A stretch of DNA of 64,000 nt. Source: Lytechinus pictus (lineage: Eukaryota). A program made the position numbers and the translations under genes. Where the stretch lies: positions 20,586,001 through 20,650,000 of the forward strand of contig NC_087251.1 in the NCBI RefSeq assembly GCF_037042905.1, read 5' to 3'. The notes below the pieces were generated by a model. It did not search any database and had not been told where the DNA came from. It worked only from the letters and a program-made list of their open reading frames with translations. Shown in pieces: positions 43,013 to 61,212 of the stretch (position 1 is the first letter of the stretch; each line of letters begins with the position of its first letter).

Positions 43013-43338
43013 TCTCTTCGTTTTCTTCTCTCTCATCTCTTCCTCCCCCTCCTCCGTGCACCCTCTCTTTCCCATTGTAACTATATTTCTTCGAGTCTCA
43101 TTTTAAAAGTTGTTCAAAATAATCTACTATTCTGTCCTCAGTGGAACATTTCGTGAAATGACTTGTTTCACGTTTTATTCGACAGTAACCATAGTAACAG
43201 TGCTTCTCAGCCAATCAAAATCAAGGAAAGTTGTCAGATCCGACAACTTGTCAGACAAAATGTTGATGAATTGCTCCCTTTGCACTTCTGTTGCGTACAT
43301 CTGTCGTGTCTTTTTTGTCAGTCAACATGGCATTTTGA

Positions 43339-51525: not shown

Positions 51526-51952
51526 TTATTGCTTAGGGGCCAAGATTTCGTTTTTATTTTTTTTAATTTTTTTTTGGGGGGGGGGGTAAAAAGGTTATCG
51601 TTTGCAACTTTTGAAAAAATTATCAAAATAGAAGGGGGCCATCCGGATCCAATGGCAGGGGCACATGTCATTTTATTTTACATTACCAATATTAGAGGAT
51701 CATCCATGGGCTATTTTTATTTTTAATATAGGTTTTCCCTTCCAATTTCATATACGAGTCACTTAAATTTATTAATAAGCATTTGAATACGTTTTCCCGG
51801 AGACATCGGTCATTCAAATTTTAAAATCAGACAATGGGATTCATTTAAAGATACTATATCATTTATAATTATTCCAATAAATTTATGATTTGATCCATAA
51901 TGGTTAGTCGCGTGCATTTCAGTGTCCGAAATGGTTGAATAAAACACTTTAA

Positions 51953-52554
51953 AGGGATGGCGCAGGCTGGAGATATTTTTATCTCAATAATTAGAGTAAA
52001 ATTCACAAAGCAAAATGCTGAAAATTTGATCAAAATCGGATAACAAATGACGAATTTATTGAATTTTACATTTTTTCCGGTGAAACAGTTCTAGGCATGT
52101 CTTTATGAATATTCATTAGGTGAGCTGATGATGTCATATCCCCACTTCTTCTTTTGTATTTTATTGTATGAAATTAGATTTTTCTACCAAGAACTAAAAC
52201 AATTAATTGGATTGATAACTGATTGTGCATTAGTTATTTATTGCCGCAACCTATTTCATCATAACGGAGACACATCATTTACACATATATGAAAAAAATG
52301 AAACATTTATAAATTTCATGTAATAACATAAAAAAAAGGAAAGTGGGGATGTGACATCATCAGCCCACCAAATGAATATTCATGATGATGTGCAGATAAC
52401 TATTTTCACAAAATATTGATAAACTTTAAAATTCAGTAACTTTGTTGTAAATTTCACAGAGCAAAATCCGATTTTGATGAAATTTTCAGCATTTTGCTGT
52501 GTGAATTTTACTGTATTTGTTCAAATGCAAATATTTTCAACCCGGACCATCCAT
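51953..52554. mobile_element. Kolobok-like MITE, same family as 46827-47398
   Basis: TTAA|AGGGATGGCGCAGGCTG...CCCGGACCATCCAT|TTAA; internal sequence closely similar to 46827-47398. Confidence 0.82.
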
Positions 52555-54583
52555 TTAATGCATGGCTGATCGTCAACAAAACGGAGTCAGTGGCGTAAAA
52601 AGCGGGGGGGGGGGCAGGGGGGCAAGCTGCCCCCCCCCCCCCCCTTGGCGGATTTCACCGGGAAACTAAAAAAACGGGAAAAGAGAAAAGGGAGAAAGAG
52701 AAAAAGGGAAAGAGAAAGAAAGAAAGAAAGAAAGAAAAAAGAAAAAATATGAATAGAGAAAATGGAAGGAAAGCGGGAAAAGGAACGGCAGAACTTTTTA
52801 GAAAGTACAAAATATCCTGAAATACTAATACTTTAGCATCATTAGCAAGAAAGGGATATAAAATCAAAAGATGTGACTTTAATGGCACAGGTAATAATTG
52901 CAGGAAAATGGGAGAAAGAGGCAAAAAGAAACGGGAAATGAAGGTATATAGAGCCACAAGCTAAATTGAAAATCAGAATATGAAAAAAAGGGACAAGAAA
53001 AAAATGAAAAGAACTTAATACGACCGGGCTGCCGAGGATTAAAAAATATAAAGAACGAGAAGAAAGGTGGATGGCGTATATTATAAGCTTGCTAAATTTT
53101 ATGCAATGACGGTCGCAATCAGGACAGTAGTATGGTGGTACGTATAGCGTCATAACTAATCCCTATTGTTCTAAACAATAGAAATGTGAATTATAATCCG
53201 ATTATAAATTAATCCTCTTATGAAATATGAAAATATGAAATATGAATTATGAAATATGAAATATGGATTATAAATTATGGAAATATGGATTATAAATTAT
53301 GAAAATATGGATTACAAATTATGGAAATATGAATACATGAATCGACAAGTATGAAATATGGATTAAAATTAGAACAATAGGATTTAAAAAAAAGATGGAC
53401 GGTCAAGTGACGTAGCAAAGGTATGACGTCATAGAGTGACGAAACCTGAAAAACCAAATGACGTCATAGTGGGCGCGACAACCAGTCCGAACCACTCTCA
53501 CCAGTGGATGTGTGGATCCAAGATCGTCAACAAGGCAACGATTATTTTCCGAGGAGGAGTAGAGTACGAGTATGGTACGTGGGCATGGACTTGTACAGCG
53601 GTCAAGCACAAAGGAGAGCGTCACGGTAAGGAGATACATTGAAAAGAAAACCAAATATCAATAGACAGGGACTTATTTTGACACCAAACCATGGCGTCAT
53701 GCATCTTGCGAAAAAACAGCGCGCGTATTACGTAATAGCTCTTTATTCGTATTTGAACTGTCATAACTTGAGTATCATATCGAACAGATCGATCAACCAA
53801 GCGGGTGGTATATTTCGACTAATTATCACCGTTTATTACGCTTGTTTAACGTCATTTCTTGTTGTATTACGCTGTTCAAAAATTCGAAGAATTTATTCCT
53901 ATTTCTACTTTCCGCTCTTTGATGCCTATTTTGTCACCCACAAAAGTTTATACTTTTTCATACTTTCTTAACTTTTTTAAATTACTTTCATTCGTTAAGT
54001 TTATTCGATTTTCTTCCAATATTGTCCCCATTTTCTCCATTTTCTTCATATTCTCCCATTTCCTTATTTTCTTCATTTTCCTCGATCATTTTGTTCATTT
54101 CCTCCAGTTTGTTCATTTGTCTTTATTTTGTTCATTTTCGTCAACCATTCATATCACCATTCCGTCATACCGTCATATCCCCATTCCCGTCATACCGCCA
54201 TTTCACCATCCCATCATTCCGTATTACCGTCATTTTACCATTCCGTCATCCCATCATTCCGTCATATCGTCATATCACCATTCCTTATTTTCTTCATTTT
54301 CCTTGTTCCGTATTACCGTCATTTTACCATTCCGTCATCTCATCATTCCGTCATACCGTCATTTCACCATACCATCATTTCCCGTCATACCACCATTTTA
54401 CCATTCCGTCGTCCGTCATCTTATCATTCCTTCATCTTACCCTTTTGTCATTTCACCCTCTCGTCATACCGTCATTTCAACACACATGACATCATAACAA
54501 CGTATCAAAATTCGTCATACCGTCATTTCAACATTCCATCAATATATTTTGGGTGTTTTTTTTTTCATTACACAGGGGATCGA

Positions 54584-54914
54584 GGAGCCGTGGTGTAATG
54601 GTTCTGACTCTTGCCTTGTAAACAGAGGGTCGTGTGTTCGAATCCCACCACGATCTGGCGTTAATCCACACTTTGCCACTCTCGACCCAGGTGCTAAATG
54701 AATACTGGTAGGATGTAAAAGTCATTGTAGCTTGTCCAGTACTGTGTGCGCGTCACCGGCAACTTACTGGGATACTCCCCAGGGAGTGGAGGATATGCAC
54801 ACTTTATGTGCGGGAATGACTTATTGAATCCGATGACCGGGGTAATAATATATCTGTTAAGCGCTTAGATACGTCAAGCGCTATATGATAGTGGATTATT
54901 ATTGTTATTATTAT
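54584..54914 (+). mobile_element. tRNA-derived SINE inserted in the Polinton-like element
   Basis: A box TGGTGTAATGG, B box GTTCGAATCC, central CACTCTCGACCCAGGTG...AATG domain shared with the SINE at 19278, AAGCGCTATAT + (TTA)n tail. Confidence 0.8.
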
Positions 54915-55257
54915 GATCAACGAAATTTCTTCCAGGGGTGGTTGTTAGAAATATGACATACACTGGTAGAATACAATAAAATGAATACCATGGTTGATAC
55001 AGTGTGATGTTAATATATCAAATATTTTAATAGTCCAAACCAATATGTTGTATCTGCGAAATACATACGTAAAGGGTTTTACTTTTTCATTATTTTATCT
55101 GTATAACATAATTCTTTAGGTCATGGATCGGAGATACTGTAAACTGTTATGTATTTTGAAATATAATTAAAACAAATTGCATTTATCACACGGATTTATG
55201 ATTAATAATTAGACCTTCTACAGTAACACAGTATTCGACTGTCTCTATGTCCTGGTC

Positions 55258-55921
55258 TCAGTTATCACTTGCTTCAGTCCCTTCCATATCTTCGTCACCA
55301 TCATCATTCTCTTCAGGTTGATACTGGAACAGTCCATCGAATTTTGTCCCATGTCTGGCGAGGACTCTTTGAATTGCTTTCCGAACATTCATACCTTTCT
55401 CTACTTTTTCGTTGACATCGGATATGATTTCCTGATTGGTTTGGTCTTCTTCAAGAAATAAGTTGTGCCTTAAGAAACTGCATGGAGTAGCGGTCGAAAA
55501 AGATGCGTTTAATAGCCCACAGTACTTTCACGTGAGCCTTTTCTTTAGCTTCTTCATCACGCATGCTCTTGGATATATATTTATCGTACTTTTCATCCCT
55601 CAGTTGTTCGGTAGCTGCCATCGCCTCTTCGTACCATTCTTGATACGCCAGGTTGTCTGCTGGTTCGTCTTCGTCAGGGATCTCTGTATTTGTAGATTCA
55701 TCTTCTCCTTCCTCTGTATCAGAATCACTCTTGTCAGTGTTTTCATCATAGCTTTCTCCAACAATGCTGGAATCTTCATTGTAACCATTTTCAGTCACAT
55801 CTCCATCATCTTCCATATCAGGGTGTAGATCTCTTTGATGCCTCTTCAAGTCGTAGTTTCGACTATACGACCTATCACACATTGAACAACCGTATCGCTT
55901 TACTGTATCGCGAGTATTCAT
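55258..55921 (-). pseudogene. Frameshifted ORF inside the Polinton-like element: single C2H2 zinc finger + acidic tract + helical domain (~220 aa when repaired)
   Basis: ORF 55451..55921 encodes YGCSMCDRSYSRNYDLKRHQRDLH followed by a D/E-rich tract; removing 4 nt near 55480 continues the frame FLRHNLFLEEDQTNQEIISDVNEKVEKGMNVRKAIQRVLARHGTKFDGLFQY...EASDN to TGA at 55258-55260; TATAAAAA on the - strand at 56007-56014; CCAACATG start context. Confidence 0.75.
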
Positions 55922-56179
55922 GTTGGCCCAGCGAATTCAAACTTGCAAATGATGAGCTGGAATCAGAAATGTTGCCTTTTATTGCGTTTCAACCTGCAAA
56001 TGTCAATTTTTATACCGAACGGCGCGTGTTGACGTCGCATTATTTCTACTCCTCCGCTGACGCCGTATACAAAATTGTGAATCGATAGTGTGTTAACCGG
56101 TATGACAGAATGACGGGATGGTGAAGTGACGGAATGATAGGATGGCAAAATTGCGATATGACGAAATGACGGCATAACG

Positions 56180-56800
56180 GAATGGCGGGATGACGGAATG
56201 ATGGGATGACGTTATGGTCGATATGTTGGTATGACGAAATGACGATATGACGGGATGATCATGGTGAAATAGCGGTTGACAAAATGAAGGCATGACGAAA
56301 TGATGAGATGGCGGAATGATGGTATGACGGAATGATTAAATAACGAAATGATGGGATGACGGAATGATGGGATGACGAATGATGGTATGACGTTATGGTC
56401 GATATGTTGGTATGATGAAATGACGATATGACGGGATGATCATGGTGAAATAGCGGTTGACAAAATGAAGGCATGACGAAATGATGAGATGGCGGAATGA
56501 TGGTATGACGGAATGATTAAATAACGAAATGATGGGATGACGGAATGATGGGATGACGAATGATGGTATGACGTTATGGTCGATATGTTGGTATGATGAA
56601 ATGACGATATGACGGGATGATCATGGTGAAATAGCGGTTGACAAAATGAAGGCATGACGAAATGATGAGATGGCGGAATGATGGTATGACGGAATGGTCA
56701 AATAACGAAATGATGGGATGACGAAATGATGGGATGACGAATGATGGTATGACGTTATGGTCGATATGTTGGTATGACGAAATGGCGGTATGACGGAATG
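56180..56800. repeat. 181-bp tandem repeat (~3.3 near-identical copies) next to the right TIR of the Polinton-like element
   Basis: GTTATGGTCGATATGTTGGTATGA recurs at 56211, 56392, 56573 and 56754 (period 181). Confidence 0.9.
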
Positions 56801-58096
56801 GTGACATGACGATATTACGAAATGACGGAATGGTTGTCGAAAATGAACAAAATGAAGAAAATGAACAAATGTGAAAATGAACAACTGAAGAAAATGAACT
56901 GGAGGAAATGAACCAACTGATCGAGAAAAATGAAGAAATTATGGGATGACGGAATGACGGATTGGTAAAATAGCGGTATAACGGGATGGTGAAATGGAGG
57001 TATGACGAATTTTGATACGTTGGTATGATGTCCTGTGTGTTGAAATGACGGTATGACGAAAGGGTGAAATGGCAAAAGGGTAAGATAAAGGAATGATGAA
57101 ATGACGGACGACGGAATGGTAAAATGATGGTATGACGGGGATTGTGATATGACGGAATGACGGTATGACGGAATGATGAGATGATGGAATGGTAAAATGA
57201 CGGTAATACGGAACAAGGAAAATGAAGAAAATAAGGAATGGTGATATGACGATATGACGGAATGATGAGATGACGAAATGGTAAAATGACGGTAATACGG
57301 AATGATGGGATGGTGAAATGGCGGTATGACGGGAATGGGGATATGACGGTATGACGGAATGGTGATATGAATGGTTGACGAAAATGAACAAAATAAAGAA
57401 AATGAACAAACTGGAGGAAATGAACAAAATGAAGAAAATAAGGAAATGGGAGAATATGAAGAAAATGGAGAAAAGGAAGAAATTGGAGAACATTAATAAA
57501 ATGGGGACAATATTGGAAGAAAATTGAATAAACTTAACGAATGAAAGTAATTAAAAAAAAGTTAAGAAAGTATGAAAAAGTATAAACTTTTTGGGGTGAC
57601 AAAATAGGCATCAAAGAGCGGAAAGTAGAAATAGGAATAAATTCTTCGAATTTTTGAACAGCGTAATACAACAACAAGAAATGACGTTAAACAAGCGTAA
57701 TAAACGGTGATAATTAGTCGAAATATACCACCCGCTTGGTTGATCGATCTGTTCGATATGATACTCAAGTTTACATGTATGACAGTTCAAATAAGAATAA
57801 AGAGCTATTACGTAATACGCGTGCTGGTTTTTCGCAAGATGCATGACGCCATGGTTTGGTGTCAAAATAAGTCCCTGACTATTGATATTTGGTTTTCTTT
57901 TCAATGTATCTCCTTACCGTGACGCTCTCCTTTGTGCTTGACTGCTGTACAAGTCCATGCCCACGTACCATACTCGTACTCTACTCCTCCTCGGAAAATG
58001 ATCGTTGCCTTGTTGACGATCTTGGATCCACACATCCACTGGTGAGAGTGGTTCGGACTGGTTGTCGCGCCCACTTTGACGTCATTTGTTTTTCGG

Positions 58097-58253
58097 GGGA
58101 GCGTTTCATGAAAGGACTTGTCGGACGTTTTATCCGACAAGTCCCATTTTATCCGACAGTTACCATAGTAACAGTACCTCTCAACCAATCAACATCAGAG
58201 AAAGATGTCAGATCTGACAACTTGTCGGATGAAAATGTTGATGAAACACTCCC
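58097..58253. mobile_element. Harbinger-like MITE inserted in the right TIR of the Polinton-like element
   Basis: GGGAGCGTTTCAT...ATGAAACACTCCC termini, 3-bp CGG duplication, absent from the left TIR; related copies at ~43141-43278 and ~25092-25220. Confidence 0.8.
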
Positions 58254-58924
58254 CGGGTTTCGTCACTCTATGACGTCATACCTTTGCTACGTCACTTGAC
58301 CGTCCATCTTTTTTTTAAATCCTATTGTTCTAATTTTAATCCATATTTAATACTTGTCGATTCATGTATTCATATTTCCATAATTTGTAATCCATATATT
58401 TCCATAATTTATCATCCATATTTCCATAATTTATAATCCATATTTCCATAATTTATAATCCATCTTTCATAATTCATATTTCATAAGAGGATTAATTTTT
58501 ATAATCGGATTATAATTCATATTTATATTGTTTTGAACAATAGGGATTAGTTATGACGCTATACGTACCACCATACTACTCAGGACAAACAAATTCTTAG
58601 CCATGGGCTAGTTATATCCCCCTATGTCGATCATAACCTGTAAGTAGGGGTAGAGCTTTACGCCTGCTAGATTTACCGGACAAAGCCTCTCAATGTTTGC
58701 TTTGGCTAAATTTTCAAAGCTGTTATCACATCAGAATTTAATTTCAAAATCTTTTTTAGAAAAGGCCAAACTTTTTTAGAAAAGGCCAATGTGTTGTGTA
58801 TGTACCTCATAGAGATATATGCTAATATATCTCTATGATACCCGCGGTTTGATAATAAAGTGGCCATCTGCAATGTTTAAAAATATCACGAGGTTCCGGG
58901 GCTCCGCCCCGGACCAGTGATGGC

Positions 58925-59091
58925 CATTGGCGGCGGAAGCCCAAAATTTTAGAGGGGGACCACCAAATTTTTGACAAGCAAAGAAAAAAAAAGAAAGGTT
59001 ATCAAAAAAATATATAGGGGGGATCGTCCCCCCCACCTCAAATTTAGGGGGGACATGTCCCCCCCCCGTCCCCCCGCTTCCGCCGGCTATG
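58925..59091. mobile_element. hAT-type MITE
   Basis: CATTGGCGGCGGAAGC...GCTTCCGCCGGCTATG termini; 8-bp TSD GTGATGGC. Confidence 0.8.
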
Positions 59092-59787
59092 GTGATGGCA
59101 CCAAGAGGGAGGCACGGGGGCATTTGCCCCCAATGAGTTGACCCCACTTGCCCCCGAAATTCTGAATTTTGAAAGTTTATGTTGTCATAAGCATCCTAAT
59201 AAATCTGCAAAGTTCATCAAAACAGCTTTTCGTTCTTTAAATTTTGTAAATTTTCTCATCGATTCACTGTTAGTTCTCAGCAATATGATTATGTCAACAC
59301 AAATCTTTCAGGTCATTATAAAATTCAAAATTTCGCTCGCGCTACGCGCTCGCAGTAAGTTGAATGAGACAAGTAAATTGTATGTTCACATGGGGCATAC
59401 AAATCCAGTGTTCAAGTCAATATGCTTCTCGCGATTAGAATTTTCATTACTCGTTTTATGCGAGATACACATACTGCGTACTCACAATTTTCATAAATAA
59501 AAAATTCTCAGCTACGCACTCGCATCAATTGTTTAGTTAGATAGCCATCCAGTTCATGATAACAAAAAGTGCTTAGAACGTCCAAGTATCATCTCAGGAT
59601 ATCTAAAATTTTTAGCTCGCGCTTCGCGCTCACATTATTTATTTGGTGAGATATAATCTGCATGATCCAATCCAAATAGCTGGTCCTTAACATGTCCATT
59701 TCAAGTCAGTATAGTGTCTACATTGAAAAAATCCTGTTCATACCAGTGATATGACCGGGAAATTTTTGGCTCTTGCCCCCCCCCCCC

Positions 59788-60005
59788 CACAGGCGGCGGA
59801 AGCGGGGGGGGGGACATGTCCCTCCCCCCTAAATTTGAGGTGGGGGACGATCCCCCTCCTAAATTTTTAGTTGATAACCTTTTTTTTTGCTTGTCAAAAA
59901 TGTTGTTGGTCCCCCCCTAAAATTTTGGTTGATAACCTTTTTTTTTTTTTGCTTGTCAAAAATTTTTGGTGCCCCCCCCTAAATTTTTGGCTTCCGCCGC
60001 CAATG
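59788..60005. mobile_element. hAT-type MITE, same family as 58925-59091, opposite orientation
   Basis: CACAGGCGGCGGAAGC...GCTTCCGCCGCCAATG; inserted in a poly-C run. Confidence 0.7.
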
Positions 60006-61212
60006 CCCCCCTGGCCACCGATCCCTGTTACGCCACTAAACGGAGTGTCGAGTGTGTCTGAACGCCAGCATGTAAAACCTTCATTTTATGAAATTATTGA
60101 AATTCAAGCCTTATTACAAATAAACCAGAACTTTGTTATTTTTTTACCATTTTCTATAATTGAGGTATCAAATTAAAGAGCAGATGTACTTTTTACAAAT
60201 ATGGTTTTCTTTTTTAAACCAAGATACTGCAGCCTCGCCAAGTGACTTTTTGGTATCCCTTTTCGCTCACTCATGCGTGAATGAGGAATAATCATTTGTC
60301 TAAATTTGTGATTAAGTTATGAGAAAATCATTGATAAATCTCGGTTTCGTTTTTTTGTGTGGGACGCACTGTAGAAACTGTAGGGCCTTGGAAATTCTGG
60401 TGGAGCGCCATCTATTGAACGACACTTGCCAATGATACGAGCGCGCACGTGTGACAATTTCTTGTTTACATTTTGATTTGCCTTTGCCTTTGCCTTTGGT
60501 ACATATTAGGATACAGCTTAAATTGATCTCTTCAAAATCCAATAAAACACCCGGAACAACGAGTGGCAACCATTTCGACACATACAACTCAAGGAAAAGC
60601 AAATTGATTTCTGAATCGTGAGTATCAACAAAGATTGATTCAACTGAAACTGCTATTATTTAACCAGGTCCAGGCCAGTTACAACATATGGTCATGCATG
60701 TGTATAATCACTATAAATAATTAATCATGATAATGAATAATGTCGCCATAAATATACCCACTACCCAGGGGCCACTCTAGGCGACACCCCAATACTTACC
60801 CGTGCTAATAAACTGGGACTCCACTCACGCGCATTTGGGCCGCCCTAGCTTAGAACTAAGCAATATTATCTAGAAATTGTTACATTGTAGTCATGAAATA
60901 TGTTCTATTAAATAAATTGATAATGTTTAATCGGTACTCACCGGTTCTTTTGTTGCATTTTCAGACCATTTCTCACAATTCTTCGTAAATATCTGCGGCA
61001 AATTTTGTCGCCATAGACAGCTTAACATCCATCTTTATTGATAAATGGAGCGCCCTTTACGATAGTAATGCCGCGGAGAAATCGTTAGGCATTTTGGCCT
61101 GTGTTCAAGGCGTAGCTGTTCTATTTTTTTTTATAGGTATGAGATCGAAATCACAGCGAGTATTTACACTCTTCCATAATGATTCCGAAAGGGAGGCGCA
61201 ACACCCCCCACC

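Follow-up and report, generated by a model that had tools for sequence, protein, structure and literature searches.

What kind of mobile element has the ends of a Polinton, almost nothing of a Polinton's interior and a single gene of its own? The question is raised by a 5455-bp inverted-repeat element in a 64,000-nucleotide stretch of the genome of Lytechinus pictus (assembly GCF_037042905.1, contig NC_087251.1, positions 20,586,001 to 20,650,000 of the forward strand; the whole stretch is called the window). The original prediction, made from the letters of the window, had taken it for a miniature Polinton (Maverick) left by deletion, with one regulatory-looking gene, that might be a satellite of a virus-like helper. 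The element is, in our judgement, probably a broken-gene copy from a multi-family set of 4-9-kb inverted-repeat elements with Polinton ends and one conserved zinc-finger gene, likely satellites for which Polintons resident in the same genome supply the enzymes of copying and insertion. We infer from the set an old lineage of helper-dependent Polinton satellites, and with it how its members are replicated and packaged and what their protein does.

The element occupies window positions 53126-58580 and is bounded by CAGGAC at 53120-53125 and 58581-58586. Its termini are AG...CT, the first bases being AGTAGTA, and its ends are exact reverse complements over 46 bp, where 24 bp had been quoted. The arms (53126-54539 aligned with 56981-58580) are identical in 1367 of 1413 columns (96.7%) and make up 50% of the element; the perfect 6-bp duplication, the arms of about 1.4 kb and the total length of about 5.45 kb were all described correctly. 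A paralogous copy of the host repeat (L025, 9601-9680; L-labels denote loci fetched and C-labels contigs) has a single CAGGAC followed by the right-flank sequence. In each of three public sequencing runs, presumed to be of DNA, 21-22 contigs depart from the window sequence at 53126, the depth of the left flank being high, and in a fourth run one contig continues like the right flank. The single-CAGGAC paralogue and the contigs departing at 53126 imply that the whole 5455 bp was inserted as one unit, and the matching CAGGAC together with the empty paralogous site bears out the claim that both ends come from one integration. The expected empty CAGGAC site thus exists, in a paralogous host repeat; it is not an empty allele of the window locus. 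An assembly artefact from fold-back reads was considered for the window copy and rejected, given the 3% divergence of the arms, an insertion in one arm only, both duplications and the empty paralogous site.

The element is one of many. A search with the helical part of its encoded protein gave 283 candidates, of which 150 were scored; the scored rows are 62-100% identical, and six of the 150 have a stop. The scored gene copies lie at 85 or more places on 19 contigs, as 44 divergent pairs, 39 single copies, one triple and one array of 20. Forty-five gene-bearing places were fetched, the window included. At 30 of them there is a simple unit, between 4215 and 8612 bp long and with AG...CT ends; no two of these units share a duplication, and all the duplications are perfect save one, which has one mismatch. 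Among the other places are one segmental duplicate (L032, which repeats the L031 insertion and is left out of the counts), three multimers or compounds with one bounding duplication and one 32-kb element with a broken gene. Arms measured in 29 units are 0.966-1.000 identical and amount to 50-100% of unit length, the units often being near-perfect palindromes. In the 30 units no match to pPolB, integrase, ATPase, protease or capsid came up (tblastn, E<=1e-3), which agrees with the non-autonomy claimed earlier, and an open copy of the gene is kept in 27. By ends and protein the units form seven families (A-G), of which family A comprises the window copy and a sibling, L001, that has the same core and a different duplication, as had been anticipated. 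The many copies with differing 6-bp duplications lend support to the satellite idea, and mini-elements, at 85 gene places, outnumber long elements, with pPolB or capsid-gene matches at 20 places (a divergent polymerase adds five).

The ends are those of resident Polintons. The first 84 bp of the element have 22 matches in the 812-Mb genome searched, and pairs of these bound elements of 17,389, 21,486 and 18,659 bp, each with its own 6-bp duplication. The 17.4-kb Polinton encodes PC4, pPolB, an A32/IVa2-type ATPase, an adenoviral protease and an rve integrase with a chromodomain; a 442-amino-acid open reading frame (ORF) that has no Pfam match is, from its position and size, a putative capsid gene. 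The attribution of the ends to Polintons, and the suggestion that a search with the start of the arm would lead to gene-bearing relatives, were accordingly sound. Against the 17.4- and 21.5-kb Polintons (on C3 and C17), however, only 257 bp at 77% and a 60-bp scrap from the PC4 side of the window element can be aligned. A PC4-like gene adjoins one end of these Polintons, and the scrap lies past the 551-bp terminal inverted repeat (TIR) of the Polinton yet is present in both arms of the mini-element. Most other families have closer partners, each a different long element: the matching end is 957 bp at 96% for B, 472 bp at 97% for C, about 400-750 bp at 85-89% for D, 278 bp at 90% for E (to a pPolB-bearing relic) and 813 bp at 94% for G, compared with the 257 bp at 77% of family A (window, L001). 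In family B about 960 bp of one helper end is present in both arms, versus a helper TIR of about 640 bp, and L026 has the other helper end, PC4 gene included, on one side. From the missing core genes and the shared ends we infer that the units depend on such helpers. Two other loci are of interest. L012 (G000:C5:54902686-54906358) is 3.7 kb long, has related ends and retains a fragment of a capsid gene; it looks like an ordinary relic of deletion and offers a contrast to the units. A 35.8-kb Polinton with the duplication ACTGTC (L017 560 to L018 9395; G000:C8:34647060-34682895) appears to hold a second Polinton of another lineage.

Neither tblastn (E<=0.1) nor a 51-sequence profile (E<=1) detected the gene in the stretches of long elements that were fetched, 54 loci in all. 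Profile searches of 17 further loci gave two gene-bearing elements without core genes, and finger-only matches beside the divergent polymerase; among the matches listed, the smallest distance between a gene match and a pPolB or capsid match is 59.6 kb. A deletion derivative in the plain sense is therefore not supported, given the near absence of alignable interior and a cargo gene that was found in none of the 54 loci and is common to seven families with different ends. Among families A, B, C and D the ORF of the gene is the only part alignable as DNA (70-74%). The ratio of nonsynonymous to synonymous change (dN/dS; Nei-Gojobori, folded parts of the protein, 13 open copies) is 0.04-0.16 between families, at a dS of 1.2-4.4 that is near saturation, and 0.06-0.31 within family C. 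To judge from these ratios, the gene is under purifying selection between families.

In a tree of 43 proteins, 11 from the L. pictus genome and five outside proteins form one clade (100/99), A and B are sisters (100/98) and so are D and G (100/100). The helpers of A and B are the closest helper pair (capsid 71%, the row for B being taken from a related C12 element). The ends of D and G are unrelated: those of D come from ordinary Polintons and those of G from a 14.6-kb element (L110 614 to L111 5238; G000:C19:4647614-4662238) with the duplication ATGGCG, identical TIRs of at least 2987 bp and a four-finger ORF. Its pPolB-like frame includes a Vsr-like stretch, the polymerase is just 27-35% like the others over 116-168 amino acids, no integrase, capsid, ATPase or protease match was found in it, and relatives are present at C15:2.04 Mb and C29:1.04-1.08 Mb; it is possibly a second, polymerase-only kind of dependent Polinton. 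L037 carries a family C gene within new outer ends (465 bp). The sister relationship of D and G despite their unrelated ends, together with L037, points to swapping of ends between families. Identities of mini-elements and helpers rank alike, over only four pairs, and D and G speak against strict co-divergence.

Three parts make up the protein: a C2H2 finger, a linker in which 24 of 53 residues are acidic, and a helical domain for which the model reaches pLDDT 96, the folded part being a 110-amino-acid all-helical structure. The 156-amino-acid ORF of the window copy is a truncated form of a 219-amino-acid protein; the one cargo gene reported earlier is indeed present, and its frameshift had been overlooked. 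The window gene is 97.6% identical to the open 219-amino-acid copy in L001. In the finger helix position +6 is R in all 38 homologues, position -1 is R in 28 of them and position +3 is D or N in 32; by the usual finger-DNA code we take these residues to be a DNA-reading surface. For the helical domain there is no Foldseek match at E<=0.001 and no usable ESM Atlas match, the best VIA score being a Z of 7.2 that covers helices 85-156 only; the folded part resembles none of the transposase or nuclease families. Pfam searches of the element's ORFs gave only the finger above noise, and no helicase family.

A profile search returned 37 clusters at E<=1e-30, one of them a multi-finger protein. The ten best full-length outside homologues were looked up and are on contigs of 1.0-4.2 kb, lengths that fit units whose arms break short-read assembly. 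Scans of viral and metagenome contigs for homologue context gave nothing, save one finger-only match. Four distant homologues occur as fusions, with a Polinton-type packaging ATPase in front (by Pfam A32 for two and by alignment for all four), and these, with one further distant homologue from pearl oyster, form a clade (97/93) separate from that of the mini-elements. The fusions and their separate clade indicate that the gene is of Polinton ancestry and was not recently cut from an ATPase fusion. Most likely the protein binds DNA and acts on the helper's programme to the satellite's benefit. As to the form this would take, a DNA-binding regulator of helper or satellite genes is the leading, if tentative, candidate; an adaptor that steers packaging through the ATPase is rather unlikely, and some other role slightly more so.

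The features of the window copy are as follows.

53120-53125, forward strand: left target-site duplication CAGGAC, 6 bp, within a high-copy host repeat.
53126-54539, forward strand: left inverted-repeat arm, 1.41 kb, from the arm alignment.
53126-53382, forward strand: Polinton-derived end, with the AGTAGTA terminus and 7/22-bp tandem repeats at 53219-53365.
53471-53542, forward strand: PC4-like gene scrap (24 amino acids at 67%; 60 bp at 88%), in both arms.
54029-54540, unstranded: minisatellites of the left arm, 9-bp and 8-bp, from a repeat search.
54575-54915, forward strand: insertion like a short interspersed nuclear element (SINE), with a tRNA-like head, A- and B-box-like motifs and an ATT tail.
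55262 (approximately)-55921, reverse strand: cargo gene (C2H2 finger, acidic linker, helical domain), with a frameshift near 55480.
56009-56014, reverse strand: TATA-like box, 93 bp upstream of the cargo ATG.
56096-56980, unstranded: extra 8-bp minisatellite with a 181-bp higher-order repeat (3.5 copies), right side only.
56981-58580, reverse strand: right inverted-repeat arm, from the arm alignment.
58097-58253, unstranded: insertion of 157 bp like a miniature inverted-repeat transposable element (MITE), right arm only, with short inverted ends and a 3-bp CGG duplication.
58581-58586, forward strand: right target-site duplication CAGGAC, 6 bp.

The sequence at 54575-54915 is common to the siblings L001 and L021 (90-94%); it is a putative SINE from its look, and ARAGORN and Rfam gave no tRNA or RNA-family match there. 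A TATA-like hexamer is present at -60 to -93 of the gene in five of nine copies inspected. The extra right-side minisatellite amounts to about 0.9 kb, and further copies of the MITE-like insert are present in L047 (97%) and at window 43173-43278 (85%). An inversion of the core between the window copy and L001 was also considered and was rejected, the arms of L001 being symmetrical.

How such units might be propagated can be framed on the fold-back model of Polinton and adenovirus replication, which is the basis of a panhandle proposal. A released single strand would anneal its long arms into a panhandle, the duplex end of which would serve as origin, with the helper's protein-primed polymerase starting at the AGT repeats. 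Copying over the panhandle would even out the arms and extend them inwards, and such inward growth could place one helper end on both sides and double the gene, as it is in most families. The helper's integrase would then insert the product with a 6-bp duplication, and fresh ends could be acquired from any active Polinton, through template switching or recombination.

A number of points weigh against reading the units as satellites. The window copy itself is probably an older, passive member, with its gene frameshifted, arms that at 3% divergence (0.971) are among the least alike, two passenger insertions and ends at only 77%. No long element in the assembly matches the ends of family F. Selection within family B is less evident, with dN/dS of 0.33-0.73 from few changes, and the A-B sister pair mirrors the relatedness of the helpers, which fits descent with the helper too. 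The sample also has its limits: 150 of the 283 gene candidates were scored, and the window's own split copy is absent from those rows; at 10 of the 45 places the fetched stretch is missing one end or both; loci were chosen by protein similarity, which favours open copies; and the long elements are covered in part, some stretches of 5-10 kb not having been fetched. Several of these points would suit a different account, in which autonomous Polintons missing from the assembly carry the gene as an accessory, the mini-elements are their defective, copy-back-like derivatives and it was in these parents that selection acted, leaving the pattern now seen between families. The partnerless family F and the distant partner of family A are what it would lead one to expect, as are the distant homologues fused to Polinton-type ATPases and the parallel sisterhood of A and B and their helpers, and with an assembly of one genome the searches give lower bounds. 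Yet for six families there are long elements with matching ends, and the gene was not found in these, the ATPase-fused clade is apart from the mini-element clade, selection is visible within family C and D and G are sisters despite their unrelated ends. Missing parents are on balance an unlikely explanation.

The other alternatives are less probable still. A one-off internal deletion of a resident Polinton, decayed in place, would suit the degraded state of the window copy and has a ready model in the ordinary-looking relic L012, with its ends 3.7 kb apart; L001, which has the same core with another duplication, an interior that cannot be aligned with any fetched long element and, decisively, 30 units with different duplications leave it very little credence. 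It is just as hard to believe that the units are autonomous transposons of another superfamily, mobilised by the small zinc-finger protein itself: one conserved gene in every family and a fold without known match leave room for a catalytic role, but identity of the ends to those of Polintons reaches 97%, the 6-bp duplication is as in the long elements and the all-helical domain matches no transposase or nuclease family. That the host benefits, keeping the units as palindromic decoys or sources of hairpin RNA that hold Polintons in check, the protein serving as repressor, is scarcely more plausible. Most units are near-perfect palindromes with 0.3-1 kb of Polinton end sequence, one insertion has been amplified to a 20-gene array and mini-elements are the more numerous; dispersed insertions with different duplications, in several young families, are what a selfish element would give. 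The satellite reading is retained, and in a bolder form, which may be right though we would not yet lean towards it, the units are a new satellite class: an old, self-standing lineage of palindromic mini-genomes with one zinc-finger/helical gene, swapping ends among unrelated Polintons, several-fold more numerous than their helpers and with a protein that switches on the helper or steers packaging, the homologues on short marine contigs being the same kind of element in other animals.

Comparison with known systems brings out what is unusual. Polintons are 15-25 kb in size with a characteristic gene content, according to PMC6431247, and PMC3014272 gives 17,487 bp, a 6-bp target-site duplication and a 584-bp TIR, with no non-autonomous copies in anole. 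The mini-elements share with Polintons/Mavericks (polintoviruses, adintoviruses) the 6-bp duplication, long TIRs, short terminal repeats and AG...CT ends held in common with resident copies, but they are 4-9 kb long, lack pPolB, integrase, ATPase, protease and capsid gene, and consist of arms for 50-100% of their length. Kapitonov and Jurka are said to have described non-autonomous Polintons as such in 2006. With deletion derivatives of the Repbase type the mini-elements have in common the partner's ends, no core genes and several copies with different duplications, and they differ in that their interior is not a piece of the partner and their own selected gene is common to families with different partners. 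The transpovirons of mimiviruses are small linear DNAs with TIRs that depend on a larger virus and are able to integrate, and Tlr1 is the 'non-autonomous polintons' of earlier work (both from PMC5499653). The units would resemble transpovirons in all these respects; transpovirons have an SF1 helicase, whereas the units have none, reside in an animal genome and bear the helper's own ends.

Phage satellites such as P4 and PICI/SaPI combine helper dependence with a regulatory gene of their own, and copy-back or snap-back defective genomes have a self-complementary layout built from one helper end. The units would be similar in helper dependence and in a putatively regulatory gene and are so in their self-complementary layout, and in common with virus satellites they have a conserved gene that does not come from the current helper; they differ in having no integrase or replication gene of their own and in being eukaryotic DNA. 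The foldback elements TU of sea urchins and FB of Drosophila make 8-9-bp duplications. They too have kilobase arms with short tandem repeats round a small middle, but, besides those duplication lengths, they lack Polinton ends, and no link between them and the units was found in the literature covered. The adintovirus Oncoid protein is defined, in PMC8502044, by an LXCXE motif beside paired CXXC; the motif is in none of 39 cargo proteins, and the finger of these is C2H2. In the literature covered, which was short of supplements and of Kapitonov and Jurka 2006, no account of single-gene palindromic Polinton satellites was found, though Repbase or Dfam may already hold some of the families, without the satellite reading.

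Polintons are thought to be endogenous viruses, and their life cycle in animals has barely been observed. If the units are satellites, there is a free replicative phase worth parasitising and a third player in the conflict of host and Polinton. Being short, numerous and young, the units should make it easy to follow free linear DNA, the contents of particles and polymorphism of insertions, and they show which cis sequences replication and integration need. Hallmark-gene surveys are blind to them, as is the case with one (bioRxiv 10.1101/2023.10.06.561300) whose text, where consulted, does not refer to non-autonomous elements, and assemblies of short reads are interrupted at their arms.

Several arrangements of the units merit record. 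On C17 a 47-kb array (L040 4560 to L103 5441; G000:C17:8.134-8.181 Mb) has 20 gene copies in 4.1-kb units within one bounding duplication, ATACGC; beyond an inner right end the same flank recurs, a sign that the array may have been amplified in tandem once the element was in place. A 16.2-kb family F multimer (L066 2411 to L102 8646; G000:C1:8757111-8773346) has one outer duplication, AAAGTG, and an inner end-to-end fusion without 7 and 25 terminal bases. In a 26-kb compound (L061 1963 to L107 8011; G000:C6:21.766-21.792 Mb) family D units stand at both ends, one duplication, TACATG, surrounds the whole and the middle has no gene copy. A relative (68%) of the SINE-like sequence at 54575-54915 lies downstream of the gene in both family F arms, in opposite orientation (L066-L068, L076), which may be chance or use as a 3′ signal. 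Beside the insertion in the window are other short inverted-repeat elements at 58920-60010 and 51949-52558 (G/C-tract MITE-like copies; a 93-bp inverted pair), and L126 (G000:C15:2.05-2.10 Mb) has a 2.9-kb tandem array of family G-type right ends with a fragment that, from a look at its ORF, is putatively reverse-transcriptase-like.

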